Positions 259 to 21,267 of a stretch of DNA of 64,000 nucleotides are shown here, one piece after another (the stretch's first letter is position 1; every line of letters begins with the position of its first letter). Both the position numbers and the translations under genes were made by a program. The DNA comes from an uncultured archaeon (lineage in GTDB: Archaea > Aenigmatarchaeota > Aenigmatarchaeia > PWEA01 > JAGHBM01): the NCBI GenBank assembly GCA_964640225.1, contig CAZXFI010000003.1, positions 3,442 through 67,441 of the forward strand. The letters run 5' to 3'. Under the pieces are notes generated by a model, which was not told the origin of the DNA, ran no database searches, and saw nothing but the letters and a program-made list of their open reading frames with translations.

Positions 259-1038
259 ATGTTTCTCGTCCTGGGGATAGACGCGGCCACATGGAAGATG
301 ATAGAACCCAACATCGGCAGGCTTCCTAATTTCAAAAAGCTTCTGGAAACCTGCTACAGCGGGACGATTCACCTGAAGGAAAAGCCCTACTCGCCGCCGC
401 TATGGTGCGGCATGTTCTCAGGAAAAACCGTGGAGGAGCACGGGCACAAAGAATACGTTATGGAGGGAAAGATAAGAAAAAGGGAAGACATACACGTGGA
501 CTTCATCTGGGACATCCTGGAGAAAAAAGGATACAAGGTAAAGGCGGTAAACGTGCCTTTCGTGGTGCCTCCCTACAACTTCGGAGTGGATTTTGAGCCA
601 ATAGGTTACGGACTTCCGGACAATCCGAAAGAGTGGGAAGAAGAACTGGAAAGAGTTACGGAAAAAGTTGTCGGGCTGATAAAGGAAAAACCGGACGTGA
701 TTATAGCCGTATTCACGAGCCTGGACCGCATACAGCACTTCCACTGGGGAGAGCCTCTCGTGGCGGACTGGTATGAAAAAATGGACAGGCGATTGGGGGA
801 AATTTTGTTTGACACAAATTTTTTGGAAAACGAGGATAACCGCTTTATACTAATATCGGACCACGGATTCTGCTCTTTCGGCGAGGCCAAGGTACAGACG
901 CTCCCGAAGAAAACAAAAACAGGGATTGAGATGAAGGGAGACCACCACGAGGATGCCGTGGTGGTGACAAAAAACGCGGGTTATGAAATAAAAAGGCCCC
1001 AGGACGTGTTTTTCGCGATACTCGGGGCATTTGACTAG
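259..1038 (+). CDS. Alkaline-phosphatase-superfamily protein (type I phosphodiesterase / nucleotide pyrophosphatase-like)
   Basis: N-terminal GIDAATW, SPPLWCGMFSGK and LISDHG motifs are typical of the AlkP core. Confidence 0.55.
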   Translation: MFLVLGIDAATWKMIEPNIGRLPNFKKLLETCYSGTIHLKEKPYSPPLWCGMFSGKTVEEHGHKEYVMEGKIRKREDIHVDFIWDILEKKGYKVKAVNVPFVVPPYNFGVDFEPIGYGLPDNPKEWEEELERVTEKVVGLIKEKPDVIIAVFTSLDRIQHFHWGEPLVADWYEKMDRRLGEILFDTNFLENEDNRFILISDHGFCSFGEAKVQTLPKKTKTGIEMKGDHHEDAVVVTKNAGYEIKRPQDVFFAILGAFD

Positions 1039-1082: not shown

Positions 1083-2018
1083 ATGAAAGTGGGGGTAGTA
1101 GGAGCGGGAATGATGGGCTCCCTGCATTCCAGGGTTTATTACGAGTTGCCTGGAGTGGAACTGGCTGCTGTTGTGGACAAAGATTTGGAGAAAGCCAGGA
1201 AAACGGCGGAAAAATACGGGGCCCGGGCTTTCAGCGACATGAAAGAGCTGGTTGGAAAAGTGGACGCAGTCACGGTCGCGGTTCCCACGAGCCTTCACAA
1301 GGACGTTTCTGTTTTCTTCCTGAAAAACGGGATAGACGTGTTGGTGGAAAAACCCATGGCCCTGACAATTGAAGAGGCCGATGAAATGATAAAGACGGCC
1401 GAGGAGAACAATCGGGTTTTCATGGTAGGGCACATTGAAAGGTTCAACCCGGCCATAGGGGCTTTAAGGGAAATGGTTAAGAATGAAAAGATTTATGAAA
1501 TAGAAACCAGGAGAAGGAACCCCTTCATAAGCAGGATAAACGACTGCGGCGTGGTCCTGGACCTCATGGTGCATGACATAGACGTGGTGAGGTACATAAC
1601 AGGGGAAACCCCGAAAATTGACTACGTTGTCGGGGGCTCTGTGAAATCAAAACACGAGGACTGGGCCAAAGTCTTCGTACGGTACGGGGACATACCCGCC
1701 GTGCATCTTTCCGACAGGAGAACCCAGAAAAAGATAAGAAATATAGAGGTTACCTGCGAGGACAAGCTTATAGTCGTGGATTATTTCAGGCAGACCATAA
1801 ATGTCTACAGCCAGGCAAAGATAATTTACGGGACCATACCCACGTTTGCCGAAAAAATGGAGACCGTAAACGTCAGGGGGGAGCCTCTCAAGCTTGAGCT
1901 TTCTGAATTCATGGATTGCGTGAAAACCAGAAGGAAGCCCTGCGTTGACGGGGAGGAAGGCAAGAAGAACATGCAGATAATATCCCAGATTCTTGAAAAA
2001 ATGAGAGTGGGTGAATGA
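1083..2018 (+). CDS. Gfo/Idh/MocA-family NAD-dependent oxidoreductase, WbpB-like UDP-GlcNAcA 3-dehydrogenase candidate
   Basis: MKVGVVGAGMMG Rossmann N-terminus. GGTGA purine tract lies 5 nt upstream of ATG 1083. Sits next to the WbpA/E/D homologs. Confidence 0.7.
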   Translation: MKVGVVGAGMMGSLHSRVYYELPGVELAAVVDKDLEKARKTAEKYGARAFSDMKELVGKVDAVTVAVPTSLHKDVSVFFLKNGIDVLVEKPMALTIEEADEMIKTAEENNRVFMVGHIERFNPAIGALREMVKNEKIYEIETRRRNPFISRINDCGVVLDLMVHDIDVVRYITGETPKIDYVVGGSVKSKHEDWAKVFVRYGDIPAVHLSDRRTQKKIRNIEVTCEDKLIVVDYFRQTINVYSQAKIIYGTIPTFAEKMETVNVRGEPLKLELSEFMDCVKTRRKPCVDGEEGKKNMQIISQILEKMRVGE

Positions 2019-3286
2019 AAGGGAAAATCTGCGTGGTCGGCCTGGGCTACGTCGGCATACCCGTGGCCGCGAAGTTTGCGGAAGCCGGCTTTGAGGTCGT
2101 GGGCATAGACATAGACAAGGAAAAAGTTGAGAAGCTGAACAAAGGCGTCTTTCCTTTGAAGGGAGAGGAGCCTGGAATGAAGGAACTTGTTGAAAAAACC
2201 GTCAAAACCGGGAAACTGAAGGCAAGTCTTGATTACAATGAATGCAAGAATGCTGATTTTATCATAATTTCCGTGCAGACCCCCATGATGGGGGATGACC
2301 CGGACTATTCATTTCTCAAGAAATCTTTGGAAGAAACTGCCGGGAGAATAAAGAGGGGATGCCTGGTTAGCGTGGAGTCCACCCTGGCTCCCAAGACCAT
2401 GGAAAAAATTGTAAAACCTATTCTTGAGAAGGGTTCCGGGTTAAGGGCCGGTGATGATTTTTATCTTATACACTGCCCCGAGAGGGTTAGGCCCGGGCAT
2501 CTCTTATACCAGCTGGAGTATTTCAACAGGGTTGTCGGCGGGGTAAACAGGGAGAGCGCTGAAAAGGCCATGGGATTCTATGAAAAAATCGTCAGGGGAG
2601 ATTTGGACTTGACCGACATGACAAGCGCGGAGATAGTCAAGACTGTTGAAAACACTTACAGGGATGTGCAGATAGCTTTTGCTAACGAAATTGCCGTGGT
2701 GTGCGAAAAACTCGGCGCCGATGTTTTTGAAATAAGGGAGCTTGTCAACAAATGCCCGTGGAGGGACATGCACGTGCCCGGGGCAGGGGTTGGGGGGCAC
2801 TGCATACCGAAGGACCCCAGGCTTCTGGCTTACAGCGTCATGGATTCTTACAAACCGGAGCTGGTTCTTCTCTCAAGGAAGATAAACGAGGGCATGCCCC
2901 GGCATGTGGTGGATTTGGTAAAAGAAAACGTGAAGACAGACGGACCAAAAGCAAGCATCCTGGGACTGGCGTTTGTCAAGGATACTGATGATATGAGAAA
3001 CAGTCCCTCCGGGGAAATAATAAAGGGGCTGGAAGAATCAGGGTTTGAAGTTTGCGCGCACGACCCTTACGTTGAAAGCAGGGGGCTGGACGAATGCCTG
3101 AAAGGCAGCGACTGCCTGGTGCTTGTGACAGACCACGCCAAGTTCAGGGAGCTGAACACCGGCAAAGGGCTTGAAAAAATAAGGAAGCTTATGAGGACTC
3201 CCGTTATCGTGGACGGGAGGAACCTGTTTGACAAAAAGCTGTGCGAGGAATCGGGTTTCGTGTATAAGGGCATAGGAAAGGGCTAG
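2015..3286 (+). CDS. UDP-N-acetyl-D-glucosamine/mannosamine 6-dehydrogenase (nucleotide-sugar dehydrogenase family, WbpA/WecC-like)
   Basis: N-terminal GLGYVGIP Rossmann motif and the catalytic GGHCIPKD motif. The start overlaps the upstream stop. Confidence 0.8.
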   Translation: MKGKICVVGLGYVGIPVAAKFAEAGFEVVGIDIDKEKVEKLNKGVFPLKGEEPGMKELVEKTVKTGKLKASLDYNECKNADFIIISVQTPMMGDDPDYSFLKKSLEETAGRIKRGCLVSVESTLAPKTMEKIVKPILEKGSGLRAGDDFYLIHCPERVRPGHLLYQLEYFNRVVGGVNRESAEKAMGFYEKIVRGDLDLTDMTSAEIVKTVENTYRDVQIAFANEIAVVCEKLGADVFEIRELVNKCPWRDMHVPGAGVGGHCIPKDPRLLAYSVMDSYKPELVLLSRKINEGMPRHVVDLVKENVKTDGPKASILGLAFVKDTDDMRNSPSGEIIKGLEESGFEVCAHDPYVESRGLDECLKGSDCLVLVTDHAKFRELNTGKGLEKIRKLMRTPVIVDGRNLFDKKLCEESGFVYKGIGKG

Positions 3287-4338
3287 ATTAATTCTTGGGG
3301 CAAACCTTTGCCTACCAGGGAAATGCCTCCCCAGTATCTCATGAGGCGTGTTCCCCATTTGACGTCAAACTTAGGAACCTCTTCACCGAGGGCGTGCTTT
3401 ACGGCGCCGTATATTACGTTTGCACCCGCAAGAGTTGACAGAACCATGGTCCCCTGAATTCTGGGGTTGCTCTCCAGTATTTTCGGCACGCCTTTTTCGT
3501 CAAGCTTGAACTGGTATCCGTGGGCGTACTCCAGTCCCATCTCCATGGAAAGCTTTTCCGAGGCCTCTATTATCGGCTGGTTTTTTTCCGCGGTTCCGTT
3601 GAAGGTTATCCCGGTCCTTATGTGGTCCCTGGAGCGCGGAATCACAACGGTCCTGTTAGCGGTGAGCACATCCACCGAGTATTCCTTTCCGGAAAGAAAT
3701 TCCGTTGCTATAAGCTCAGGGAAGCTTTCGCCCAGAATCGCTTTCAGCTCCTCTTTTCTGATGTGAACGCCGGAAGGCTTTTCCGAATAAAACGTCTTTT
3801 TCCTGTCTTCGGTTTCGCTGACTATCCTCAGTCCCCTCATGCCGCTGGAAACAGGAGGCTTCACTACAACTGGAACGTCAGGCCAGCCCAGGTCTTCCAT
3901 GTGTTTTTCCAGCTCGCTGAAATTGTCTGAAAGGTAAAAATTGGCGGTGGGAAGGCCCAGCTTTCTGGATATCTTCATCAGCTCGTGTTTGTTGTTTGAA
4001 ATTTCTATTCCCTTTCTGTCGGAAATGGCAACTTTAGTTCCGGTTTTTTCAAAATCCCTTCTGTGTTCCGACAGCTTGGCCAGCTCCGCGGTCACCTGCG
4101 GGAGGATTACGTCAACTTTCTCTTTCTCGCACACGTCCATTAAACGGCTTAAGAAAGACTGTTCGGAAGGCTTTGGAATCACGTGGAAAGAGTCGCAGAG
4201 GTGCCTGCCCACCACGTCCTCCCTTATGTCCACGCCCACAGTCCTTATCTTCCTTTTGTCAAAGTTGTTCCTGAGGGAAAAAAGCGTGCCTTTTATACCC
4301 GGAGCCCCTGCTCCCGTGACCAGAACTACTGCCTCCAC
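3283..4338 (-). CDS. ATP-grasp domain ligase (carboxylate-amine ligase family)
   Basis: Length and a PylC/CarB-like ATP-grasp arrangement. Sits inside the sugar-modification cluster. Confidence 0.55.
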   Translation of the reverse strand: MEAVVLVTGAGAPGIKGTLFSLRNNFDKRKIRTVGVDIREDVVGRHLCDSFHVIPKPSEQSFLSRLMDVCEKEKVDVILPQVTAELAKLSEHRRDFEKTGTKVAISDRKGIEISNNKHELMKISRKLGLPTANFYLSDNFSELEKHMEDLGWPDVPVVVKPPVSSGMRGLRIVSETEDRKKTFYSEKPSGVHIRKEELKAILGESFPELIATEFLSGKEYSVDVLTANRTVVIPRSRDHIRTGITFNGTAEKNQPIIEASEKLSMEMGLEYAHGYQFKLDEKGVPKILESNPRIQGTMVLSTLAGANVIYGAVKHALGEEVPKFDVKWGTRLMRYWGGISLVGKGLPQELI

Positions 4339-4958
4339 CTTATCACCTCAAAGGCTTCCGCGTAATCATTGTCGGACTGCACGCCCCTTACCCTTGCAAG
4401 GCCCCTGATGAAGTCCTCGGAGAAATAGCCTCTTTTCATGGACTTCTGGGTATTGTAGCAGCTCAGCATGTCCATTTTCCTTTTAACGTGTCTTTCGGAA
4501 AGCCTGAAAAAGAAAGTCGGGGAGAAGCCTATCTTGTTCCACGGAATTTCGTAACCGAGAATGTTGGAACGCTTGTTGAACGCTCTCAATCCTTCCATGG
4601 CCACAACGTGATGGTCCTGGTGAAAATCATTAAGGGAAGGCATTATCACCAGGTCCGGTGAAAATTCCTGCCTTATTTTTATCAGGCTTTCAAGTATTTC
4701 CTGCCTTTTTTCGTGAAAACACCTCACCTTGAAATCATATATTGTATATTTTTCAAGGCCGAGTTTTTTTGCCACTTCCAGGAATTCTTTTTTCAAGGCG
4801 TCCCTGGGAAATCCCCCCGGGACCGAGTCCTCGGCCACGGAAAAAACCACCCACTTGACATCGTGCCCCTCTTCAAGAAAACGGGCCACGGTGCCGCCCG
4901 CCCCCAGTTCCACGTCGTCCGTGTGAGGCGAGAGAAGCAGTATCTTTATTTTTTTCAT
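4326..4958 (-). CDS. PIG-L/LmbE-family N-acetyl-sugar deacetylase
   Basis: The N-terminal SPHTDDVELGAGGT motif is the LmbE/PIG-L signature. Confidence 0.7.
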   Translation of the reverse strand: MKKIKILLLSPHTDDVELGAGGTVARFLEEGHDVKWVVFSVAEDSVPGGFPRDALKKEFLEVAKKLGLEKYTIYDFKVRCFHEKRQEILESLIKIRQEFSPDLVIMPSLNDFHQDHHVVAMEGLRAFNKRSNILGYEIPWNKIGFSPTFFFRLSERHVKRKMDMLSCYNTQKSMKRGYFSEDFIRGLARVRGVQSDNDYAEAFEVIRWRQ

Positions 4959-6025
4959 AAAATCCCCTTTATAGAGTTGACTATCGTGCTTAAATCTTTT
5001 TGCTCCAGGGCGGGATGAACCGGCAGGGACAGGACTTTTCTGGACATCTCCTCTGTTACAGGCAGAAAGTCACCGTATCCCATCTTCTGGTAAAATGGCT
5101 GCTTGTGTATGGGCTTTGGGTAGTAAACCCTGGCTCCGATTCCGGCCTCGTTGAGTTTTTTCAAGAGAAAGTCCCTTTTGTCCGTTTTTATGGTGTACTG
5201 GTGGTAAGCGTGTTTTACGTGGGAAGACACGTACGGCGTTTCCACGGCATCCTTGAGCTTCTTTGTCAGGTATCCCGCGTTTTCCGACCTTATTTTGTTG
5301 AAGCGGTTTAGCTTCTTCAGTTGCTCCAGGCCTATTGCCGCGTTTATGTTTGTCATTCTAAGGTTGAATCCCAGGCATTCGTGCTCGTAGGTCTGCGTCT
5401 GGCCGTGGTTCCTGAGTTTCCTGAGCTTCTCTGCCAGTGCGTCGCTGTTAGTCGTGACCATTCCCCCCTCTCCCGTTATCATGTTCTTGGTGGCGTAAAA
5501 GGAGAAGGCCGCGCAGTCGCCGAAAGACCCGGCCTTGCGGCCCCTGTACTCGGAGCCGTGCGCCTGGGCCGCATCTTCCAGAACTTTCAGACCCCTTTCC
5601 CTGGCTATGCTCGTTATCTCATCCATTTCAGCCGGGTGGCCGTAAAGGTGGACTGGAATTATTGCCTTGGTTTTGGGGGTTATTTTCTCCCTTATCCTTT
5701 CCGGGTTTATGTTGAAGGTTTTTGAGTCTATGTCAGCGAAAACGGGTTTGGCCCCGCAGAAAAGGATTGAATTGGCTGTGGCTATGAAGGAAAAGGAAGT
5801 TGTTATAACTTCGTCTCCGGGGCCCACTCCCATGGCCAGGAGAGCCAGGTGAAGGGCGGTGGTACCTGAGGAAACAGCCACGGCATGCTCCGTTCCCGTG
5901 TAGCGGGCAAAGTTCTTTTCAAGCTCCTCCACTTTCACCCCCTGAACCAGCATTCCCGAGTTCAGGACGTCAATTACGGCCTTCTTTTCCTCTTCCCCTA
6001 TCAGGGGATTTGCTATGTGAATCAT
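4955..6025 (-). CDS. DegT/DnrJ/EryC1 PLP-dependent sugar aminotransferase (WbpE-like)
   Basis: The track ORF reaches 6301, but the conserved N-terminus MIHIANPLIGEEE begins at ATG 6025. GGAGG lies 6 nt upstream. The ATGA overlaps the upstream gene's stop. Confidence 0.8.
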   Translation of the reverse strand: MIHIANPLIGEEEKKAVIDVLNSGMLVQGVKVEELEKNFARYTGTEHAVAVSSGTTALHLALLAMGVGPGDEVITTSFSFIATANSILFCGAKPVFADIDSKTFNINPERIREKITPKTKAIIPVHLYGHPAEMDEITSIARERGLKVLEDAAQAHGSEYRGRKAGSFGDCAAFSFYATKNMITGEGGMVTTNSDALAEKLRKLRNHGQTQTYEHECLGFNLRMTNINAAIGLEQLKKLNRFNKIRSENAGYLTKKLKDAVETPYVSSHVKHAYHQYTIKTDKRDFLLKKLNEAGIGARVYYPKPIHKQPFYQKMGYGDFLPVTEEMSRKVLSLPVHPALEQKDLSTIVNSIKGIL

Positions 6026-6684
6026 TCCAACCTCCTCATCCTGTCGGAAAGGTTTGTGGGGTCCAGCTTCCTTACAATGTCCCGCACGTCGCCTGTTACC
6101 CTTGCAGGCACGCCGTAAACAACCTTGAAATCGGGGACATCCCTGGTTACAACGGAGCCCGCCCCGACAAGAGCCCCCCTTCCTATGGTTATGCCCGGCA
6201 GTATCGTGGCGTTGGCCGCTATCGTGGCGCATCTTTTGATAAGGGAGGCGTCGCATTTCCAGTCTTTCAGGAAAGCAGGGGCCTTGTCGTTGGTCAGGCA
6301 CACATTGGGCGCCAGAAAAACATCATCCTCTATCACAGTTCCGGTGGGTATGTACACGCCGGCCTGGATACTGACATTCTTTCCCACGGTGCAGTTGTTG
6401 TCTATCGTAACGCTGGTCCCTATGAGAGTACCGTCCCCTATGCGCGTGTTCTCCCTTACCATGTAGAAATGGCCTGTCCTGACGTTGTCTCCCAGGACTG
6501 CCTTGGAATAAATTGTCCCGTGTGCCCTCAGGTGGCAGTTTTTGCCCACAACAGAGCCCTCTATGCCACCAGGGTTTTTCTTGAAGGCGTCAATCTCCGA
6601 AACTGACGGGTGGCCTATGGTAACGTGGTCCCCTATTATCGTTCCGGAACCTATTCTGCTTTTGCCGTATACGGAAGGTTTCAT
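6022..6684 (-). CDS. Left-handed beta-helix (hexapeptide) N-acetyltransferase (WbpD/PglD-like)
   Basis: Repeated [LIV]GxxxxI hexapeptide pattern throughout the protein. Confidence 0.8.
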   Translation of the reverse strand: MKPSVYGKSRIGSGTIIGDHVTIGHPSVSEIDAFKKNPGGIEGSVVGKNCHLRAHGTIYSKAVLGDNVRTGHFYMVRENTRIGDGTLIGTSVTIDNNCTVGKNVSIQAGVYIPTGTVIEDDVFLAPNVCLTNDKAPAFLKDWKCDASLIKRCATIAANATILPGITIGRGALVGAGSVVTRDVPDFKVVYGVPARVTGDVRDIVRKLDPTNLSDRMRRLE

Positions 6685-6722: not shown

Positions 6723-7637
6723 TCAGCCCAGTATTTCCTGTATGGTTTTTGCCACGGACTCCCTGGAATTGTATTGCGGTGACCAGCCCAATTTTTTTAT
6801 TTTGGCTATGTTAAGAAGGAACTTGGGCACGTCGCCTTTCCATCCCCGCTTTCCGCCAGTATACCTTATGGAGGCCTCGGAAGACTTTTTTTCTATGACC
6901 AGTTCCGCTATCTCCTTTACTTTTATTGTGTCCTCGGAGCCTATGTTGAAAATGTTAACCTTTTCCCGCGAGTTTTCCGCCGCATAGAGAATGGCGCCCA
7001 CGCAGTCCTCCACATGCAGGTAGGACTTGTTCTGGGAGCCGTCTCCCAGAACCTCAAGTTCTTCAGGATTTTTTTCCAGTTTTTTCACGAAATCGGGAAT
7101 CACACCATGGTTTGACCTGCCGCCTATTATGTTGGCCAGCCTGAAAACCCATGAATGTATACCGAACTCGGAGTAGGCGTAGATAAGGGACTCGGCGGCC
7201 AGTTTTGACGCGCCGTAAAGGGATATTGTCACCAGCGGGCCGTAGTCTTCCGGGGTGGGTATGACCTTTGCCTCGCCGTAAACAGTGGAGGTTGATGTGA
7301 AGGCTATTTTGTCCAGTTTGTTCACCCGCATGGCTTCAAGCACGTTGTGGGTCGCGATTATGTTCTCCCTTATGTGAATCTCGTGGTTCTCCTCCCCGAG
7401 CCTCACGTCAGGGTTTGCCGCCAGGTGGTATACCGCCTCAACCCCCTTCACGTTTTCGGCCACGAAATCCTTGTCCTTCAGGTCGCCTTTGACAAAAACC
7501 GCCCCGGGATTCACGTTTTCCTTTTTGCCGGAAGAAAGATTGTCTATTACCGTGACCTCGTGGCCCCTTTCCAGAAGCCTGTCCACAAGGCACGAGCCTA
7601 TGAAGCCCGCGCCGCCGGTAACCAGAATTTTGCCCAT
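6723..7637 (-). CDS. NAD-dependent nucleotide-sugar epimerase/dehydratase (GalE-like SDR)
   Basis: VTGGAGFIGS and YxxxK short-chain-dehydrogenase motifs. Confidence 0.8.
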   Translation of the reverse strand: MGKILVTGGAGFIGSCLVDRLLERGHEVTVIDNLSSGKKENVNPGAVFVKGDLKDKDFVAENVKGVEAVYHLAANPDVRLGEENHEIHIRENIIATHNVLEAMRVNKLDKIAFTSTSTVYGEAKVIPTPEDYGPLVTISLYGASKLAAESLIYAYSEFGIHSWVFRLANIIGGRSNHGVIPDFVKKLEKNPEELEVLGDGSQNKSYLHVEDCVGAILYAAENSREKVNIFNIGSEDTIKVKEIAELVIEKKSSEASIRYTGGKRGWKGDVPKFLLNIAKIKKLGWSPQYNSRESVAKTIQEILG

Positions 7638-7686: not shown

Positions 7687-8661
7687 TTACTTAAACTTTA
7701 GGGAGAAAATAACGGCGCCCAGAACAATATAAGGCCAGAACATGAAAAGCCTTGTTATGAGAGTCACGGCAGTAACCTGGGCCAGGGTCACTGAAAAAAG
7801 TGATGTGAAAAAAGTGACCGTCACCACCTCAGAAGAGCCTATCGCGCCGGGCAGGAAAGTCATCACCCCTATGAGCACGGAAAGCGGAATTACTGCTATG
7901 CAGGCCCATGCCAAGTTCTGCGCCATGAAACCCGTTGATAGAAAGGAAATATAGACCGACAGGCCCTGTATCATCCACACAACTGCGGTCAGGGCAAAGG
8001 AAGAAACAAGCGTGGGTACGTGCTTGTATTTTACAAAGGCCTTGTTAAGCTTATTAGAGCCTTTCCTTACCCTGCTTTCATAAGACTTTACCTTGGGTAT
8101 GAAAGAGAACACCCTGAAAAGCCTTGTGAAGAACGCCTCGGAGCGCTTCTCTGAAGTTATGACAAAAATACCCAGGCCTACCACGAAGACATAAAGTAAC
8201 AAGGATATAAAAATCCAGTCAATCATCGTCTCCAGGGCCGCGAAGAGGAAGTACATGGAGATTAGGGCAACCAGCAGAAGGAAAACAACATCCAGCATCC
8301 TCTCAACCACAACCGAGGACAGGGAACTGGAAAAGGATTCGTCCTCCGTCCTCTTAAGTATCACGGAGCGTATGGGGTCCCCTGTTTTTGCCGGGCTGAT
8401 GTTTGAAAAGAACATTGAGGCCACGAATATCTGCCATGCCCTGGAAAATTTTGTTTTTATTCCTATCCTTCCCAGAAGCACCTGCCACCTGAGTGTCCTT
8501 ACTATTGTGTCGGCAATCCAGAGAAAAAACAGGACAAAAAGAAGAAAGGGGTTGGCCACGGCCATTATGTGGAGCGTTTTTCCAATGTCCGAAAAGTAAA
8601 GCAGGATGCCAAGTATGGAAAAGGACAGAATAAACAGCAGAAACCTTTTTTTAATTCTCAC
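7687..8661 (-). CDS. Polytopic membrane protein, UPF0104 / LPG-synthase-TM-like (flippase-like)
   Basis: Multiple TM helices and an RWQVLL motif. Confidence 0.45.
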   Translation of the reverse strand: MRIKKRFLLFILSFSILGILLYFSDIGKTLHIMAVANPFLLFVLFFLWIADTIVRTLRWQVLLGRIGIKTKFSRAWQIFVASMFFSNISPAKTGDPIRSVILKRTEDESFSSSLSSVVVERMLDVVFLLLVALISMYFLFAALETMIDWIFISLLLYVFVVGLGIFVITSEKRSEAFFTRLFRVFSFIPKVKSYESRVRKGSNKLNKAFVKYKHVPTLVSSFALTAVVWMIQGLSVYISFLSTGFMAQNLAWACIAVIPLSVLIGVMTFLPGAIGSSEVVTVTFFTSLFSVTLAQVTAVTLITRLFMFWPYIVLGAVIFSLKFK

Positions 8662-8672
8662 GGTTTTTCACC

Positions 8673-9686
8673 TTACCATACGCTGGAGGGCCTGTCCATG
8701 TCCAGGCCCTGTTTCTTGGATAAAGAATTCAGCATGATGTTTAATAAAGGCGACGGGAGGGAGTATACCCTTTTTATCAAGAGGCCGCGCCTCATCTCCC
8801 CGGCAAGCCTCTTTCTCCATTCCTTTTCGTAATCCTTCATTTTGGGCTCCTCTGGTTTTATCAGGGAAGAAGCCACGTCTGCGGCTGTCAGACCGTAAAC
8901 CACTCCCCCGCCGGAGTAAGGCTTGGTCTGGGAGGCGGCGTCGCCGCAGAGAAAAACCCTTTTGGTGGTTATTTTTGGGAGGAGGCCGTAGGGTACGAGG
9001 CCTGAGTAAACTTTCCTGTAAGAGAACTTGAGCTTTTTGGAAAACATTTCAAAGTACTTTTTTGCGTTGGTTTCGCAGGCAATTCCAAATTCAACCCCTT
9101 CTTTCCTGGGTATCCTCCAGGCAAAGAAGCCGGGGGCCTTTTTATAGTACAAATCCACAAAGTCGTCCGGCTCCTCCCGGGTGTAGCAGAATATTCCGTG
9201 GAGGAACTGCGGGGGGCGCAGGCCCATTTTACTCCTTACCATGGAAAGCGGGCCGTCGCACCCGGCCAGGACTCCTGTTTTTGTGTTCTGGAAATTGTCC
9301 GACTTTATGTAGAGGGAAACATGTTTTTCGCCCTCAAAAAAGCTGAAAAGCCTTGTGCCCGTGGCTATTTTTGCGCCGGCCCTTTCAGCCAGGTCGGCCA
9401 GCTTCCTGTCAAGGCGGGGCCTGTTTATTACAACTGCCTGATTTGAAAGAAAAATGTGGGTCTTTTTGCCCAGGTGAATCCTGGCCCCCTTTATTTCCCT
9501 TTCCACAAGCTTTTTGTCCCGGGGAACGAAATTCCATATGTTTTTTGATACAAGGCCGGAGCATGCCACCGGCTCCCCTATCTTTCCGTGCTCCTCCAAA
9601 AGAAGAACGCTGTGGCCTCTTTCCGAGAGTTTCCACGAAAGATAAGAGCCCACCGGGCCCGCGCCGCACACCGTGAAATCGTACAT
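8673..9686 (-). CDS. Geranylgeranyl-reductase-family FAD-dependent oxidoreductase
   Basis: CGAGPVGS dinucleotide-binding N-terminus and GDAA motif. Confidence 0.7.
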   Translation of the reverse strand: MYDFTVCGAGPVGSYLSWKLSERGHSVLLLEEHGKIGEPVACSGLVSKNIWNFVPRDKKLVEREIKGARIHLGKKTHIFLSNQAVVINRPRLDRKLADLAERAGAKIATGTRLFSFFEGEKHVSLYIKSDNFQNTKTGVLAGCDGPLSMVRSKMGLRPPQFLHGIFCYTREEPDDFVDLYYKKAPGFFAWRIPRKEGVEFGIACETNAKKYFEMFSKKLKFSYRKVYSGLVPYGLLPKITTKRVFLCGDAASQTKPYSGGGVVYGLTAADVASSLIKPEEPKMKDYEKEWRKRLAGEMRRGLLIKRVYSLPSPLLNIMLNSLSKKQGLDMDRPSSVW

Positions 9687-12291: not shown

Positions 12292-12930
12292 TTGGCGGAT
12301 GCTATAATACTGGCAGGAGGAAAGGGCAAGAGGCTAAGGCCTCTCACGGACAACATCCCCAAGTGCCTTGTGCCCGTGAACAGAAAGCCTCTTCTGGAAT
12401 ACCAGAGGGATTTTTTCAAAAAACACGGCGTGGAAAGGATAATACTGGCCTGCGGATATTTGTGGGAAAAAATAAAGGAAAGGTACGGCGACGAGTTTAT
12501 TTACTCGGTTGAAGACGAGCCCCTTGGAACAGGGGGCGCCATCAAGAAGGCCATGAAACACGTGAAGGGAGACGGATTTTTCGTCATAAACTGCGACGAG
12601 TACTGTGATGTTGACCTCAATAAAGTGGAAAAAATGGGAGCCAACGCAATCGTTTTGGCCCGCTTCAACTGCAGGTTCGGGTTGGTTGACACCGAGGGAG
12701 ACATGGTAAGGGGCTTCAGGCAAAAGCCCGTCCTTCCTTACTGGGCAAATATGGGCCTGTATTTCTTGAACAAAAAAATAAGCCTTCCAGACAAGGGAGC
12801 CATAGAGACGGAGACTTTCCCGGACATGGCGAAAGGGGGAGAACTGAAGGCTTACAAACACGAGGGAGTTTGGCTTACCGTAAACTCCATAAAGGATTTG
12901 GAAAAACTGGAAAAATTTTTAAAGGGGTGA
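12292..12930 (+). CDS. Sugar-phosphate nucleotidyltransferase (NTP_transferase fold)
   Basis: N-terminal AIILAGGKGKRLRPLT signature. Apparent TTG start directly after the secD stop. Confidence 0.7.
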   Translation: MADAIILAGGKGKRLRPLTDNIPKCLVPVNRKPLLEYQRDFFKKHGVERIILACGYLWEKIKERYGDEFIYSVEDEPLGTGGAIKKAMKHVKGDGFFVINCDEYCDVDLNKVEKMGANAIVLARFNCRFGLVDTEGDMVRGFRQKPVLPYWANMGLYFLNKKISLPDKGAIETETFPDMAKGGELKAYKHEGVWLTVNSIKDLEKLEKFLKG

Positions 12931-15727: not shown

Positions 15728-16915
15728 TTGCAAAAATCTTTGGAGTCTATTTTCAATGGTTATGTAAATAAAAGAAAGATTTTTACTAACAAAAAAGCAA
15801 TAACAATTTCCTACAAACCCAACGAGCTTCCACACAGAAACAGGGAAATAGAGAGCGTGGCTTCAATTTTAGGCCCAAGTTTAAGTGGGGAGAAACCCTC
15901 CAATGTATTTATATTCGGGAAGCCCGGAACAGGCAAAACTGCCGTGATTCACCTAATATCAAAAAAACTCACTAAGATGAGCAAAAAAAACGTGGGCCTG
16001 TTTTATCTTAATTGTAAAATGAGGAATGTGGCCGACACGGAATATAGGCTAATCGCGCAGCTTGCAAGAGAGCTCGGTGAGTTCGTTCCTGTCACAGGTC
16101 TCCCAACGGACCATGTTTACAACCTGTTCTTCAAGGCCTTGGACAAACGAGGCGGGGTTATTATTCTAATACTGGATGAAATAGACGTGCTTGTTGAAAA
16201 AATAGGGGACAACTTCCTTTATAACTTGACAAGAATAAACGAGGAGCTCAATAACACCCAGGTAAGTATAGTGGGAATTTCAAACAACCTGTCCTTCACG
16301 AACGACATGGATCCCCGCGTGAAGTCTTCACTTTCTGAGGAGGAGCTAATATTCCACCCTTACAATGCAATACAGCTGCAGGATATTTTAAGAAAGAGGT
16401 CCGAGGGGGCCTTCAAGGAAAACACCTTGGAGCCGGGTGTGATAGAAAAGTGCGCGGGACTGGCTGCCCAGGAGCACGGGGACGCCAGGAGGGCGCTGGA
16501 CCTGCTCAGAGTGGCCGCCGAGATAGCGGAAAGAGAAAGTTCGGAAAGGGTTATGGAGAAGCACGTTGACATGGCGGAGTCAAAAATAGACAAGGACAGG
16601 ATAGTAGAAATAGTAAAATCCCAACCCAGGCAGAGCCAGGCAGTCTTGTGGAGTATAATGAAGACAGGAGGCGAGATTCAGACGGGGGATATATTTTCTG
16701 TTTACGAAAAAATATGCGCCGAAAACGGCCTCAAGCCCCTGACGCACAGAAGGGTTTCCGACCTGATAGCGGAGCTGGATATGCTGGGAATAATAAGTGC
16801 CAGGGTTGTCAGCAAGGGCAGGTATGGAAGGACGAGAATAGTCAAGATGAGCCTCCAGGATTCTCTTTTAGGCAAAATAAGGGAAATACTGCAGACAAAA
16901 TATTACTTCCAGTGA
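15728..16915 (+). CDS. orc1: Orc1/Cdc6 replication initiator
   Basis: AAA+ Walker A GKPGTGKTA, Walker B LDEIDV, and a C-terminal winged helix. Confidence 0.85.
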   Translation: MQKSLESIFNGYVNKRKIFTNKKAITISYKPNELPHRNREIESVASILGPSLSGEKPSNVFIFGKPGTGKTAVIHLISKKLTKMSKKNVGLFYLNCKMRNVADTEYRLIAQLARELGEFVPVTGLPTDHVYNLFFKALDKRGGVIILILDEIDVLVEKIGDNFLYNLTRINEELNNTQVSIVGISNNLSFTNDMDPRVKSSLSEEELIFHPYNAIQLQDILRKRSEGAFKENTLEPGVIEKCAGLAAQEHGDARRALDLLRVAAEIAERESSERVMEKHVDMAESKIDKDRIVEIVKSQPRQSQAVLWSIMKTGGEIQTGDIFSVYEKICAENGLKPLTHRRVSDLIAELDMLGIISARVVSKGRYGRTRIVKMSLQDSLLGKIREILQTKYYFQ

Positions 16916-16919
16916 TTTT

Positions 16920-17927
16920 ATGGATTTGGTTAAGGATTTTTTAGACAAGGGAATTCTGCTGTCCCCGGGGGTGGTAGGCAAGGTTAAAAAAAAGGACCTG
17001 AAGGAAATAACGAAAAAAATGGGCAGGAAAGTCGTGGTAACGGGAGAGGTATTGTGCGCGGTCAGGGGAACGGGAGTGGAAATATTAAGAGAGCATAAGA
17101 AACTGGATGAAACAAAAAGAATAACGGAATTTGTTGATTTTTACAACAAAAGGTTTGAATTTTTGCGCGGATTGCTGGAGGAAAAACTGGAAATTGAGAA
17201 AATAACATCCATAAACAAACTTAACACAGGCAGAGTCACGGTCATAGGAATGGTAAGGGAAATAAATGATAAGGGGTTTAAGATAGAGGACTCCACGGGT
17301 TCTGTTTTTTGCAGGTCAGATGAAAGGCTTTTGGAGGACGAGGTTGTGGCGGTTGCGGGGAATTTTGACAGGAAAGACCTCTGCGCCGAAAAAATAATCT
17401 ACCCGGACATACCCCTTAACAAAAAAATAAATCTGACGAAGGAAGACTGCCGTGTGTTGTTCACAAAAAAACTCACCAAGGAGCCTTCACATGAACCTTC
17501 ACATATATTCACGTTTGATTTAAACCCGGAAATTTTGGGGAGCATTTCAGCAGAAATTATAACGAAAAAAGAGGGCCTGAAAAAAGGCCCCGGAAGGACA
17601 GGCCTTGGGCTACCATCTCTCTTGGAAATAAGCGGGGTGAAGATTTTTGTTTTTGAGAACAAGGAAATGGAAGAAATAAAGAAGAAAACGGAAATCAAAG
17701 ACGAGAAAAATCTAATTACCTCGCTCCTGAAAAGAAGGCACCTGCTTCCGCATGTTTACACGGAAGGCGACCCGTATCTGCTGAAGGATATACCAGACAT
17801 AATATTTTTCTCCGGGGGAAAGGAAAGTTTCTTCCTGAATTACAAGGGGGTTTCAATCGTTTCGGTTGCAGGAAAGGAAAGCTTTTTGGTAAACCTGAAA
17901 ACAAGGGATTATGAGGAGTTGGAATGA
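16920..17927 (+). CDS. Truncated DP1-like (PolD small-subunit / B-subunit-like) protein. It keeps the N-terminal domain, OB fold and C-terminal tail but lacks the phosphoesterase catalytic core.
   Basis: The MDLVKDFLDKGILLSP N-terminus and OB segment (IEDSTGSVF...VVAVAG) resemble DP1. The C-terminal LLKRRHLLP...DPYLL..IPDIIFFSGG...YKGVSIVSVAG is collinear with the DP1 tail RHVAP..DP..L...PD..HMGHVH...YRGV.LVNS, with the His residues replaced. Confidence 0.45.
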   Translation: MDLVKDFLDKGILLSPGVVGKVKKKDLKEITKKMGRKVVVTGEVLCAVRGTGVEILREHKKLDETKRITEFVDFYNKRFEFLRGLLEEKLEIEKITSINKLNTGRVTVIGMVREINDKGFKIEDSTGSVFCRSDERLLEDEVVAVAGNFDRKDLCAEKIIYPDIPLNKKINLTKEDCRVLFTKKLTKEPSHEPSHIFTFDLNPEILGSISAEIITKKEGLKKGPGRTGLGLPSLLEISGVKIFVFENKEMEEIKKKTEIKDEKNLITSLLKRRHLLPHVYTEGDPYLLKDIPDIIFFSGGKESFFLNYKGVSIVSVAGKESFLVNLKTRDYEELE

Positions 17928-18535
17928 ACATAATATTTGACCTCGGGGGCGTTTTAATAACAAACGACTGGGATAAAAAAAACACGGGGTTTTTTGCGGA
18001 GTTTATAGGGGTTTTCGGGGTTTCCGAGAAAGACATGGACCGGGGGTGGAGAGCCGGACACGATCCCTTCTTTACGGGTAGGATAAGCGAAAACGAGTTC
18101 TGGAAAATATTTTTTAAAAAGGCAGGCCGCGAAGAAGTCTCGGAAGAAGACCTTGCCCGCGCCAAAAAAATTTGGAGAAAGCACCAGAAACAGGACAAAA
18201 ACATGCTGGCTCTTTTGAGGAAACTGAAAAAAAACCACATTTTGGTAGGACTTACCAACCTAGGAAGGGAGTGGGCCGACTATAAGATAAAAAAATACAA
18301 ACTAAACAGGTATTTTCAAACGGTTTTCATTTCCGGGTACCTGGGAGTGGCCAAACCGGACCCGGAAATCTACAAGAAAGTACTCATGAAGCTCGGCGCC
18401 GAGCCAGAAGATTGCTTTTTTATTGACGACAGGGAGAGAAACACCGCCCCCGCGGAAATTCTGGGGTTCAGGACCGTTGTTTTTAAGAACCGGAAAGAAC
18501 TGGAAAAAAAACTGGCTGAAGTGGGTCTGCTGTAA
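17924..18535 (+). CDS. HAD-superfamily (subfamily IA-like) hydrolase
   Basis: N-terminal FDLGGVL nucleophile motif and a C-terminal FIDD motif. The ATGA overlaps the upstream gene. Confidence 0.7.
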   Translation: MNIIFDLGGVLITNDWDKKNTGFFAEFIGVFGVSEKDMDRGWRAGHDPFFTGRISENEFWKIFFKKAGREEVSEEDLARAKKIWRKHQKQDKNMLALLRKLKKNHILVGLTNLGREWADYKIKKYKLNRYFQTVFISGYLGVAKPDPEIYKKVLMKLGAEPEDCFFIDDRERNTAPAEILGFRTVVFKNRKELEKKLAEVGLL

Positions 18536-18600
18536 AACAATATGCTGCAGAACAAATTAATTTTTATAGCTTAATGTTCATTACTTTGTTGGGGTTGAAA

Positions 18601-21267
18601 ATGGAGTTGCAGGTTCTTGACGCCGATTACACGTTGCTTAATGAAAAACCAATAGTAAGAGTTTTCTGCAAGGATTCTACGGGGAAGGTTTTTTGTGTTT
18701 TTAAAAGGGGTGTGGAACCTTACTTCTATGCGCTGGGGGAAACGGATGAGATAAAGGAGAAACTCAAGAAATTTGAAGGCGAAATACAGAGAGTGGAGGA
18801 AGTAGAAAGGTTCCTTCCGGTGGGCTACCAGGAAAAGAAAACAAAAGTCCTTAAAATAACCAACAGAAACCCCTCCAAGGTTCCCGCCATAAGGGAAACC
18901 CTGGGGTGCAGGGTTTTTGAGGCGGACATTCTTTTCAAGTACAGGTTCTTCTCGGACACAGGCATAAAAGGCATGAACTGGATAGAAGTTGAGGGAGATT
19001 TTGTCAACACAAACACGGTCTCTTGTACGGGAATTGAAGCAAAAAAGATAAAACCAAAAAACAAGGAGGAAAACATTCCTTTAAAAATTATGGCCCTGGA
19101 CATAGAGACAGAGGCGCCGTCGGACAGGATGCCGGAGCCGGACAAGGACGCGATAACCATGATAAGCCTGGCCTTCTCGGAGGATTACAAAAAGGAGAAA
19201 GACATGGTTATAGTCTCAAAACATGTCATGCTCAGGGACGACCAGAAAAATAATACAATATGCACGGATAACGAGAAAAAAATGCTGGAAAAACTCAAGG
19301 ATGTGATAAACGACTACGACCCCGATGTAATAACAGGATACAACATACAGAACTTTGACATGCCCTTTATTGTCGGCAGGATGGACAAGTCCGGCGTCAA
19401 GAAGGACTTCGGAAGGGCAAAGGACAAGAACGTTTTTTGCAGCAAGTATGGTCCAATCTCCAACACGAACATGTCAGGAAGAATAGTCTCCGATTCCTAC
19501 CAAATTATCAAAAAAGACTTCTCCTTCAAGAGCTACAAGCTGGACAACGTAGCGGAAAAGCTTCTGGGCAAGAAAAAAATTGACATAAGCTACAAAGATT
19601 TTGAAAGGCTGTGGAACGGGAGAAAAGAGGGTGTTCAAAAACTCATAGATTACGCGAGAAAAGACTCAATACTGGCGCTGGACCTTGTGAAAAAGAAGAA
19701 CCTCCTTGACAAGTACATAGCTCTTTCAAGGGTTTCCGGAATACTGCTTCAGGATGCTCTGAACGGGGGAGAGTCAATAAGAATAGAAAACGTTTTGCTC
19801 TCCGAGTTCAACAAGAGAGGCCTACTTTTCCCTCCCAAGCCAAGCGACAGGGAGGTTATGGAAAGGGCGAATAGAAGGGAGAAGAGCGGACTGAAGGGGG
19901 GGCTTGTTCTGGAGCCGAGGGCGGGACTTCATACCGACGGATGCATACTTGTTCTGGACTTCAAGAGCCTTTACCCAAGCATAATAAGGACTTACAATAT
20001 ATGCCCCACAACGCTTCTCAAAGAAAATTTGGATGTGGAATACAGCACTTCCCCGCTTGGAATAAAGTTCGTGAAAAGCAGCGTAAAGGAAGGCATACTT
20101 CCCCACGTGCTGGAGAACCTGATAAACCAGAGATCCCTTGTCAAGAAAAAAATGCACGAGGAAAGGGATGCGGACAAGAAGAGACTGCTTTACGCCAAAC
20201 AGTGGGCCCTTAAAATACTGGCCAACGCCTTTTACGGTTATACGGGGTATCTCAGGGCAAAAACCTACGTCATGGAGGTGGCCAACACAATAACCGCCTT
20301 TGGTAGGGAATTGCTGCAAAGAACCAGAAAGGAAATAACCGACATGGGTTACGAGGTTGTATACGGGGACACGGACTCGGTTTTTGTTAAAGCGGACACC
20401 AAGGACCTTGAAAAGGCGTACAAGCTGGGAAACCGGATAGTAAGCAAGATAGACTTACCCGGAAAACTTGTCCTGGAATTTGAGAAAATATTCCGCTCGT
20501 TTCTTATATTGACCAAAAAAAGGTACGCCGGATGGAGCTTTGAGAAAAACAACGGCGACTGGTCGGACAAAATAGAGATGAAGGGAATAGAAACTGTGAG
20601 GAGGGACTGGCCAGACCTTGTAACGGAGAGCATGAATGTGGTGCTTAACATAATCCTGAAGGAAGGCAACGTCAAAAAGGCGATAGCCTACGTCCAGGGA
20701 GAGGTTGACAAGCTCAACGCGGGAACAGTGAACCTTAAAAAGCTCGCGGTCACAAAGAGCATAACAAAAAGCGTGGACAGGTATGACGGCATGCTGCCGC
20801 ACATAGAGCTGGCCAAAAAGATAAGTCAGAGGAATCCCTCCCAGACTCCTTCCCCGGGGACCAGGATATCTTACATCATAATAAGGGGCAACCAGATGCT
20901 GAGTAAGAGAGCCGAAGAGCCCGAGTACATAAACGAGCACAAGCTGAACATAGACTCCTGTTATTACATAGAGAACCAGCTTTTGCCCCCACTTGAAAGA
21001 ATATTTTCCGTGATAGGCGTTGACAAGGGAGAGCTTATGGGCAAGGGGAGGCAGTGCAACCTGAAGGACATGCTGAAGCCCGCCAAGAGAAACCATAAAA
21101 TAGAGATACCCCCGGAAAAAATTATCGTAAAGTCCCCCGAAGGATTCGTCTGCAGGAACTGCAACAAGAATTTCAGAAGGGTCCCTCTTGTGGGTAGGTG
21201 TGATTGCGGGGGAGAGATTCTGGCCTTTGCTCGGGGGAATATGGGTTTTCTTATAAAACTAAATTAA
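18601..21267 (+). CDS. polB: Family B DNA polymerase (PolB) with a C-terminal Zn-ribbon extension
   Basis: Exo I LDIETE. Pol motifs DFKSLYPSII, KILANAFYGYTGY, YGDTDS. A ~85-aa tail after the thumb carries CRNC...CDCGG. ATG 18601 is preferred. Confidence 0.85.
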   Translation: MELQVLDADYTLLNEKPIVRVFCKDSTGKVFCVFKRGVEPYFYALGETDEIKEKLKKFEGEIQRVEEVERFLPVGYQEKKTKVLKITNRNPSKVPAIRETLGCRVFEADILFKYRFFSDTGIKGMNWIEVEGDFVNTNTVSCTGIEAKKIKPKNKEENIPLKIMALDIETEAPSDRMPEPDKDAITMISLAFSEDYKKEKDMVIVSKHVMLRDDQKNNTICTDNEKKMLEKLKDVINDYDPDVITGYNIQNFDMPFIVGRMDKSGVKKDFGRAKDKNVFCSKYGPISNTNMSGRIVSDSYQIIKKDFSFKSYKLDNVAEKLLGKKKIDISYKDFERLWNGRKEGVQKLIDYARKDSILALDLVKKKNLLDKYIALSRVSGILLQDALNGGESIRIENVLLSEFNKRGLLFPPKPSDREVMERANRREKSGLKGGLVLEPRAGLHTDGCILVLDFKSLYPSIIRTYNICPTTLLKENLDVEYSTSPLGIKFVKSSVKEGILPHVLENLINQRSLVKKKMHEERDADKKRLLYAKQWALKILANAFYGYTGYLRAKTYVMEVANTITAFGRELLQRTRKEITDMGYEVVYGDTDSVFVKADTKDLEKAYKLGNRIVSKIDLPGKLVLEFEKIFRSFLILTKKRYAGWSFEKNNGDWSDKIEMKGIETVRRDWPDLVTESMNVVLNIILKEGNVKKAIAYVQGEVDKLNAGTVNLKKLAVTKSITKSVDRYDGMLPHIELAKKISQRNPSQTPSPGTRISYIIIRGNQMLSKRAEEPEYINEHKLNIDSCYYIENQLLPPLERIFSVIGVDKGELMGKGRQCNLKDMLKPAKRNHKIEIPPEKIIVKSPEGFVCRNCNKNFRRVPLVGRCDCGGEILAFARGNMGFLIKLN

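Follow-up and report, generated by a model that had tools for sequence, protein, structure and literature searches.

Near the left end of the DNA analysed here, a 64,000-nucleotide stretch (the window; positions 3,442 to 67,441 of contig CAZXFI010000003.1, assembly GCA_964640225.1) from an uncultured archaeon of the Aenigmatarchaeota, two overlapping genes encode a putative ATP-grasp ligase and a putative sugar deacetylase of the PIG-L/LmbE family, and it is the function of this pair, in the window and in its relatives, that concerns us. The two genes are:

3283..4338, minus strand: predicted ATP-grasp carboxylate-amine ligase, 351 amino acids, GTG start, last gene of its operon (Pfam and structure model)
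4326..4958, minus strand: predicted PIG-L/LmbE-family zinc de-N-acetylase, 210 amino acids, ATG start (Pfam PIG-L, 9e-19)

The list of open reading frames (ORFs) places both genes co-directionally on the minus strand, with the LmbE stop and the ligase start overlapping by 13 nucleotides (4326-4338), in agreement with a preliminary description of this DNA that had reported the overlap and the shared direction and had not stated the strand; independent gene calls on the public contig recovered the same two genes. The domain assignments made there, ATP-grasp and LmbE, are both correct by Pfam, the ligase matching ATPgrasp_Ter (5e-30), PylC-like_N (6e-13), ATP-grasp_3 and CPSase_L_D2 and the deacetylase matching PIG-L at the value given above. 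The best NCBIfam match of the ligase is the uncharacterised PRK12767 ‘carbamoyl phosphate synthase-like’ group (121 bits, below cutoff), and its AlphaFold model (71 homologs; predicted local distance difference test score 94.4) aligns over its full length in a structure search with PurD, PurT, PurK and biotin carboxylase at 14-20% identity. The nearest solved structure, which is also the top PDB sequence match, is 2pn1 from Exiguobacterium sibiricum, a member of the same PRK12767 group (Foldseek E value 2.5e-22, template modelling score 0.73-0.83); however, at 17% identity and as a structural-genomics entry without an assigned function, it is uninformative on the substrate. Residues K160, E289, N291 and R293 (the last three within an ‘ESNPR’ motif) are invariant in the 71 homologs including the window protein, with roles assigned by analogy, and by its fold and these putative nucleotide- and Mg-binding residues the window protein is a member of the ATP-grasp superfamily for which ligation activity can be predicted. 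The family is large: there are more than 1187 homologs at identities of 42-68%, the best 120 of which are 54-68% identical to the window ligase when its own entry is left out, and clustering at 50% identity leaves about 367 representatives with scores below 1e-30. Public annotations of the ligase read either ‘carbamoyl-phosphate synthase large subunit’ or ‘ATP-grasp domain-containing protein’.

For the deacetylase, both LmbE motifs are intact (H12-T-D14-D15 and H113-Q-D115-H116) and align to the metal site of BcZBP (PDB ID 2ixd), which is found among its PDB matches together with BshB and diacetylchitobiose deacetylase. Its top NCBIfam match is BshB1 (64 bits, below cutoff), and it is 59% identical to the LmbE protein that accompanies the ligase in one of the related loci described below (L004). 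Family membership and intact motifs together suggest that it would act as an N-acetyl hydrolase on a sugar of the N-acetylglucosamine (GlcNAc) type.

The case for a joint function comes from the neighbourhoods of the ligase in other genomes. A genome scan gave 157 confirmed matches, of which the best 80 loci (42-66% identity to the window ligase) were surveyed by calling ORFs in all of them, clustering these and mapping them relative to the ligase; 38 of the loci have a complete 10 kb on either side and form the fully sampled subset. The loci come from archaea (Thermoplasmata, Thermococci, Methanosarcinales, Methanomicrobiales, Methanobacteriota, Halobacteria, Asgard, DPANN and Thermoproteota) and from bacteria (Bacteroidota, Acidobacteriota, Thermotogota, Bacillota, Planctomycetota and others), and all 80 are sugar or glycan clusters. 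In 66 of the 80 the ligase has an LmbE gene no more than 3 kb away, in nearly every case as its immediate upstream neighbour. The strand is shared in 62/67 cases, and of 61 pairs on one strand 26 show exactly the same 13-nucleotide overlap of stop and start, so that across unrelated loci the pairing is far beyond chance. Moreover, the pairwise identities of LmbE and ligase are correlated across loci (Pearson 0.56). Where LmbE is missing from its usual place, an unannotated family of about 250 amino acids stands there instead, whose profile matches CE4/NodB deacetylases (PgdA, chitin deacetylase; E value about 3e-4) and which has invariant R-H-D-x-D and H...H motifs; judged by these features it is a predicted non-orthologous displacement of the deacetylase. 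One 591-residue protein of the representative library (P0296) joins the two kinds of domain in a single chain, with a CE4-like deacetylase at residues 1 to about 235 and an ATP-grasp domain at 240-571. In the fully sampled loci a deacetylase is found in 38/38, a phosphatase in 32/38 and a nucleotide-sugar 6-dehydrogenase in 13/38. The constancy of the deacetylase, its displacement by a non-orthologous family, the fusion and the 13-nucleotide overlap therefore argue that deacetylation and ligation are coupled steps.

The usual third partner, which the preliminary description did not foresee, is a phosphatase. Directly downstream of the ligase there is a PHP-domain protein of about 210 amino acids in 45 loci and a HAD phosphatase in 14, and at a few further loci there is a HAD fusion or a short ORF resembling HAD, for a total of about 60 of the 80. 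Phosphatases of two or more unrelated folds thus occupy this place, and removal of a phosphate appears to be what usually comes third. We refer to deacetylase, ligase and phosphatase together as the cassette. Ahead of LmbE there is frequently a glycosyltransferase, of family GT4 or of the rare DUF354 family (12 loci), and a GT4, DUF354 or GT2 enzyme lies inside the cassette in about 32/80 loci. WbpB-, WbpE-, WbpD- and WbpA-like genes are common beside it and sometimes interleaved with it, as in the orders DegT, LmbE, ligase, PHP, acetyltransferase (L019) and Gfo/Idh/MocA, LmbE, ligase, PHP, acetyltransferase (L017). Among cultured organisms, Thermococcus gammatolerans EJ3 (CP001398, with the locus at the end of the record) has the order GT2, acetyltransferase, DegT, Gfo/Idh/MocA, dehydrogenase, GT2, DUF354, PIG-L, ligase, and a Methanosarcina mazei strain has GT2, GT2, DUF354, PIG-L, ligase, PHP.

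Some features of individual loci may be recorded here. The locus most similar to and syntenic with the window (66% identity; L003:5113-6309) has a ligase ORF with about 39 LmbE N-terminal residues in frame, a short fusion that could be an LmbE deletion or an assembly artefact. In M. mazei (CP187260, L087:10854-12179) the gene next after the cassette PHP encodes a CapK-like adenylate-forming enzyme (PF27533), which may supply or further modify an acyl group. AsnB-like amidotransferases or a WbuX/HisH/HisF-like trio of the acetamidino-forming kind often flank the cassette (L006, L013, L014, L016, L052, L056, L057, L067, L073, L075 and L079), and the sugars made at these loci probably also receive C6 amide or acetamidino groups.

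In the window the pair closes a minus-strand operon running from 9686 to 3283, the last four genes of which have overlapping stops and starts; the operon converges with two plus-strand genes. Together with two further genes of the same or possibly the same locus, its surroundings are as follows:

4955..6025, minus strand: DegT/DnrJ/EryC1 sugar aminotransferase, WbpE-like, 356 amino acids (Pfam DegT, 8e-139), 4-nucleotide overlap with the LmbE start
6022..6684, minus strand: hexapeptide-repeat N-acetyltransferase, WbpD-like, 220 amino acids (Pfam Hexapep, 2e-26; NCBIfam NeuD/PglB/VioB family)
6723..7637, minus strand: NAD-dependent sugar epimerase/dehydratase, 304 amino acids (Pfam Epimerase, 9e-55)
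7687..8661, minus strand: LPG_synthase_TM / flippase-like membrane protein of the MprF type, 324 amino acids (Pfam PF03706, 2e-47; NCBIfam TIGR00374, flippase-like domain)
8673..9686, minus strand: geranylgeranyl-reductase-family flavoprotein, 337 amino acids, first gene of the operon (NCBIfam TIGR02032, 169 bits, above cutoff)
1083..2018, plus strand: Gfo/Idh/MocA oxidoreductase, WbpB-like, similar to UDP-GlcNAc(A) 3-dehydrogenases (Pfam GFO_IDH_MocA, 2e-34)
2015..3286, plus strand: nucleotide-sugar 6-dehydrogenase, WbpA/WecC-like, 423 amino acids (NCBIfam TIGR03026, 404 bits, above cutoff)
259..1038, plus strand: type I phosphodiesterase / nucleotide pyrophosphatase family protein, 259 amino acids (Pfam Phosphodiest, 3e-18), same glycan locus
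12292..12930, plus strand: sugar-phosphate nucleotidyltransferase, 212 amino acids (Pfam NTP_transferase, 2e-22), possible locus member

All four enzyme families of the WbpA/B/E/D pathway to the diacetamido-uronate UDP-GlcNAc3NAcA (UDP, uridine diphosphate) thus lie within 1083-6684, with family-level scores that are below the NCBIfam equivalog cutoffs, and the diacetamido-uronate setting claimed in the preliminary description is real at this level. The best NCBIfam match of the WbpB-like protein is the archaeal UDP-GlcNAc 3-dehydrogenase (275 bits, under the cutoff of 450), and the 6-dehydrogenase, which converges with the ligase so that the two gene ends share 4 nucleotides, reaches 404 bits against the archaeal UDP-ManNAc dehydrogenase model, below its cutoff. 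The longest ORF of the DegT gene (4955-6301, minus strand) has a spurious Arg/Gly-rich N-terminal extension of about 92 residues, read in another frame over the acetyltransferase gene (6022-6684), and its true start is at about 6025 (MIHIANPL), which gives a 4-nucleotide overlap with that gene. At the head of the operon the flavoprotein is possibly a polyprenol or dolichol reductase, and the MprF-type protein (in 7687-9686) has a weak match to the NCBIfam model of a glucosamine (GlcN)-phosphatidylglycerol flippase; these flippase-like and short geranylgeranyl-reductase-family genes may tie the operon to a lipid carrier or to an amino-sugar lipid.

Taken together, these observations point to the ligase itself as the re-acylating enzyme on the amine that LmbE would free, which merges two ideas that the preliminary description had kept apart, and we tentatively read the pair as the core of an N-acyl exchange module, a reading to which we give slightly less than even weight and in which an amino sugar would be de-N-acetylated and then re-acylated at the expense of ATP. 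LmbE, to judge from its family and intact catalytic motifs, would remove an N-acetyl group from a GlcNAc-derived sugar, which in the window would most likely be a 2,3-diacetamido-2,3-dideoxy-hexuronic acid supplied by the neighbouring WbpA/B/E/D-like enzymes and which could be either a UDP-sugar or already lipid-linked. The ATP-grasp enzyme, as linkage, fusion and translational coupling suggest, would then activate a small carboxylic acid as its acyl phosphate and join it to the freed sugar amine, leaving a non-acetyl N-acyl group. In most relatives, and not in the window, the downstream PHP or HAD phosphatase would finally strip off a phosphate; since a phosphatase is linked in most relatives, the incoming acid would itself be phosphorylated. 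Candidate donors are 3-phosphoglycerate, which would yield N-glyceroyl and whose acyl phosphate is 1,3-bisphosphoglycerate, or O-phosphoserine, the choice between them being speculative. With a WbpD-like acetyltransferase co-transcribed, the most coherent version would have WbpD acetylate N3 and would leave N2 as the site of acyl exchange by LmbE and the ligase; alternatively the N2/N3 assignment may be the opposite, or the enzymes may act on a lipid-linked sugar. The nearest characterised neighbours of the ligase (PurD, PurT, PurK and biotin carboxylase) activate a small acid that is attacked by a nitrogen of a larger phosphorylated substrate, and by analogy they lend weak support to re-acylation. 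There are also chemical precedents. In the synthesis of mycothiol and bacillithiol, LmbE is succeeded by an ATP-dependent ligase that works on the freed GlcN amine, an order with which the linkage, fusion and overlap of the genes described here would agree. The ATP-grasp domain of Neisseria PglB2 has been proposed to install an N-glyceroyl group (see below), and a methanogen N-glycan contains a 2,3-diaminoglucuronic acid with acetyl and glyceroyl groups (PMC11407970). For the phosphatase, Cj1438C and Cj1435 of Campylobacter jejuni show that an ATP-dependent glycan amidoligase may take a phosphorylated co-substrate that a phosphatase of its own then trims (PMC11800397). In a wider and still more tentative proposal, deacetylase, ATP-grasp enzyme and phosphatase may constitute a widespread N-acyl exchange cassette of Thermococcus, Methanosarcina, Methanothrix, Haloferax, Asgard and DPANN archaea and of Bacteroidota, Acidobacteriota, Thermotogota and Bacillota, which would give the amino sugars of bacterial surface polysaccharides and archaeal N-glycans, in place of N-acetyl, an acyl group that stems from a central metabolite in phosphorylated form (3-phosphoglycerate as the source of glyceroyl, for instance, or O-phosphoserine as that of seryl), with the window as its minimal two-gene form.

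Several points weigh against N-acyl exchange. The ligase family has no characterised enzyme, and every step above is drawn from context. Genes for making a uronate do occur, both in the window and at about one in three of the loci, and WbpB/E genes often stand interspersed with those of the cassette. N3 acetylation by a WbpD-like enzyme and deacetylation are coherent only on the assumption that LmbE targets the other nitrogen. The window itself is an atypical member: tblastn with the cassette PHP and HAD proteins found no linked phosphatase in its glycan cluster, and no GT4 or DUF354 gene was found by tblastn anywhere in the 64 kb. N-glyceroyl as the group transferred also failed both of the checks that could be made of it. 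One methanogen N-glycan has a 2,3-diaminoglucuronic acid bearing both acetyl and glyceroyl (PMC11407970), but Methanoculleus marisnigri, which makes an N-glyceroyl diaminoglucuronic acid, is absent from the best 80 of the 157 confirmed genome matches and also from the matches to a Methanoculleus sp. ortholog (among them Methanofollis, Methanomicrobium, Methanoregula and Methanosarcina), so that a link to the M. marisnigri sugar is unsupported, with no close homolog among the matches listed. For Tannerella forsythia the gene for the glyceroyl (Gra) group was reported to be still elusive (PMC6120980), and a link to its Pse5Am7Gra is likewise unsupported, as the papers give no candidate gene and make no mention of an ATP-grasp or deacetylase gene at the locus. 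Finally, the sole proven pair of an ATP-grasp enzyme and a phosphatase in glycan synthesis does something else, namely amidate the C6 carboxylate of a uronate (PMC11800397).

This last point leads to the strongest alternative, C6 amidation, which was also the role proposed for the ligase in the preliminary description and which we regard as unlikely, yet as the rival to be taken most seriously. Here the ATP-grasp enzyme would couple the C6 carboxylate of the (di)acetamido-uronate to an amine, with LmbE as a separate step; for most relatives one would expect a phospho-amine as the partner (O-phosphoserine, phosphoethanolamine or O-phosphothreonine), from which PHP or HAD later takes the phosphate, and the product would be a serine, threonine or ethanolamine amide, similar to the ManNAc(3NAm)A6Thr of Methanococcus. 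The precedent is the capsule of Campylobacter jejuni, where the ATP-dependent amidoligase Cj1438C, the C-terminal part of Cj1438 (residues 453-776), joins the C6 carboxylate of glucuronic acid to serinol phosphate or ethanolamine phosphate, whose phosphate is afterwards taken off by the HAD phosphatase Cj1435 (PMC11800397). The window protein would likewise be an ATP-dependent amide-forming ligase in a glycan cluster, and in most of its relatives (about 60 of the 80 loci) the ligase is followed by a phosphatase, which would remove a phosphate brought along by the co-substrate. Glycosyl transfer precedes the action of the C. jejuni pair, and genes for glycosyltransferases often adjoin the cassette. 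A uronate-forming dehydrogenase is present in the window, convergent on the ligase gene, WbpA/B/E-type genes are strongly enriched near the cassette, and amino-acid amides of acetamido-uronic acids are known in methanogen N-glycans, for which the review names no gene (PMC11407970). However, going by its description, Cj1438C works through an activated sugar carboxylate with no deacetylase involved, whereas in the cassette the deacetylase is invariant. C6 amidation leaves this protein without a role even though it is the tightest partner of the ligase (all 38 loci, the P0296 fusion, the overlap), and a 6-dehydrogenase lies within 10 kb in only 13 of the same 38. Nor does a conserved enzyme for making a phospho-amine accompany the cassette: among its clustered neighbours there are no equivalents of the decarboxylase Cj1436 or the transaminase Cj1437, and the only pyridoxal phosphate enzyme is the WbpE-like DegT protein. 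The phosphatase of the C. jejuni pair has no counterpart next to the window pair, and among the sequence and structure matches of the window ligase no PDB relative is named Cj1438. Thus of the split roles proposed earlier, sugar modification within a 2,3-diamino-uronate cluster stands, while a separate C6 amidation fits less well with the unequal frequencies of deacetylase and 6-dehydrogenase, and the evidence favours coupled deacetylation and re-acylation over independent C6 amidation.

Two further alternatives are both improbable. In the first, the freed amine would be N-formylated by way of formyl phosphate, as in PurT, or N-carboxylated, as in PurK and biotin carboxylase, possibly with an N2-N3 cyclic urea as the product. 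N-formyl amino sugars are common in glycans, methanogens are not known to have the folate cofactor on which sugar formyltransferases usually depend, and the closest characterised relatives of the ligase in both sequence and structure are indeed PurT, PurD, PurK and the biotin carboxylases. This similarity is at the level of the fold, however (14-20% identity), the family is equally frequent in folate-containing bacteria, and the phosphatase linked at about 60/80 loci is left unexplained. The second would assign the cassette to a small molecule of the mycothiol or bacillithiol type, or to a lipid head group, in which GT4 or DUF354 places GlcNAc on a phosphorylated acceptor and phosphatase, LmbE and ligase then produce an acyl- or aminoacyl-GlcN-X compound. 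In the synthesis of mycothiol (MshA/MshA2/MshB/MshC) and bacillithiol (BshA/BshB/BshC), LmbE exposes the GlcN amine and an ATP-dependent ligase then acylates it. The cassette resembles these pathways in having an LmbE protein, which in them acts at C2 of a GlcNAc glycoside, a ligase and a GT4 enzyme, and mycothiol synthesis also includes a phosphatase, so that GT4, phosphatase, LmbE and ligase together reproduce the enzyme logic of mycothiol; a glycosyltransferase is indeed part of the cassette at about 32 of the 80 loci, and the weak flippase match of the window MprF-type protein would fit an amino-sugar lipid. Yet the cassette ligase is an ATP-grasp enzyme, in contrast to MshC, which is similar to Cys-tRNA synthetase, or BshC, and the cassette GT4 proteins fit generic polysaccharide models (XrtA-system, TuaH) better than BshA or MshA. 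An MshA/BshA-like nature of these GT4s is unsupported (BshA at most 57 bits against a cutoff of 274), the setting is one of polysaccharides and N-glycans and not of thiols, with Wzx-type flippases, several glycosyltransferases and nucleotide-sugar pathways that are typical of glycans, and the window has neither GT4 nor DUF354. Lastly, a grouping with RimK-like peptide ligases, which the preliminary description had held to be incompatible with a sugar-directed role, was not seen: the ligase scores 25.7 bits against the RimK model (cutoff 143) and 21.6 against LysX (cutoff 276), its relatives are found consistently in glycan clusters, and these sub-cutoff scores together with the glycan-locus context rule out a RimK/LysX-type identity.

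Returning to N-acyl exchange, the reduced form of the cassette in the window deserves comment. A single gene of a phosphatase family is seen within the 64 kb, a weakly matching HAD hydrolase (17924-18535) that has Cdc6 on one side and PolB on the other; we reject it as the missing partner given its housekeeping look and its setting among replication genes. A PHP gene about 10 kb outside the window was likewise rejected as a relocated partner, as it belongs to a second ATP-grasp gene (21% identity) and is of a PHP type not found in the cassette. The tblastn search of the whole window found no CE4-like gene either. Within its family the window ligase groups with proteins that have a linked PHP, its nearest relatives mostly having PHP, and it keeps all residues that are invariant in the family, in an alignment made up mostly of phosphatase-linked relatives; a changed specificity is therefore not indicated. 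It is possible that in this organism another phosphatase acts (the second ATP-grasp gene has its PHP about 10 kb away, albeit of another subtype), that the phosphate stays on the product, or that the acid is unphosphorylated.

Closest to the chemistry proposed for the cassette is the ATP-grasp domain of Neisseria PglB2, which was proposed to install the N-glyceroyl group of glyceramido-acetamido-trideoxyhexose (GATDH) (PMC11130364, PMC6959607) and so to put a glycerate unit, and not acetyl, on the amine of a sugar. Compared by description, it differs in being fused to a phosphoglycosyltransferase and in meeting a free 4-amine, so that no deacetylase is needed. The WbpA/B/E/D families that surround the window pair also recur beside the cassette elsewhere, including in T. 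gammatolerans; however, the known pathway ends at the di-N-acetyl sugar, and an extension by deacetylase and ligase was not found described in the literature searched, in which we also found no paper that pairs LmbE or PIG-L with ATP-grasp. The parts of the cassette are known enzyme families with precedented logic, and the cassette itself seems undescribed.

How antigenic archaeal N-glycans, bacterial O-antigens and capsules are, and what surface chemistry they have, is shaped by non-acetyl N-acyl groups on their amino sugars (glyceroyl, aminoacyl, formyl and others), and the genes that install these groups are mostly unknown, as is stated for Tannerella (PMC6120980), with none named in the archaeal review (PMC11407970). 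Cultured hosts of the cassette (T. gammatolerans EJ3, M. mazei, Methanofollis formosanus and a Haloferax species) offer a testable route to one such modification. If N-acyl exchange holds, characterising the cassette would make this part of glycan chemistry predictable from genomes, and sugar amines would become a new substrate class for a large uncharacterised ATP-grasp family that is now annotated as ‘carbamoyl-phosphate synthase large subunit’.

The wider region is a large archaeal glycan-decoration locus. To the left of the window the contig carries CysD with an intein and CysN (sulfate activation), a Wzx-like flippase and a sulfatase-like protein, and the phosphodiesterase-family gene at 259..1038 sits between CysN and the WbpB-like gene. 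The CysD-like gene, of the 3'-phosphoadenosine 5'-phosphosulfate reductase family, encodes 703 amino acids including the intein and is followed by the CysN-like GTPase gene (L084:6624-9997; also L086:3252-6011); the presence of these two genes suggests sulfated glycans. In the homologous cluster of T. gammatolerans the WbpA-like dehydrogenase also bears an intein (919 amino acids). About 7-10 kb to the left of position 1 (L084:293-4702) there follow a radical-SAM/SPASM protein, an S-adenosylmethionine-dependent methyltransferase, the second ATP-grasp enzyme, a PHP phosphoesterase and a sulfatase-like protein. This second ATP-grasp protein has 383 amino acids and is 21% identical to the window ligase, its own PHP partner has 232 amino acids and is of a different subtype, and it shares 30% identity with the second ATP-grasp copies of the loci L002, L006, L011 and L014, those of L011 and L014 being followed by a CE4-like deacetylase. 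An Rfam scan of the window gave zero matches. The genes for Cdc6, PolB and SecDF lie inside the window and Hjc is found on the contig just past its end; Cdc6/Orc1, an unknown ORF of 335 amino acids, the HAD hydrolase (203 amino acids) and a family-B DNA polymerase stand in series at 15728-21267 on the plus strand, probably a replication-origin neighbourhood, and a low-GC stretch (38%) lies ahead of this row at 14-16 kb.

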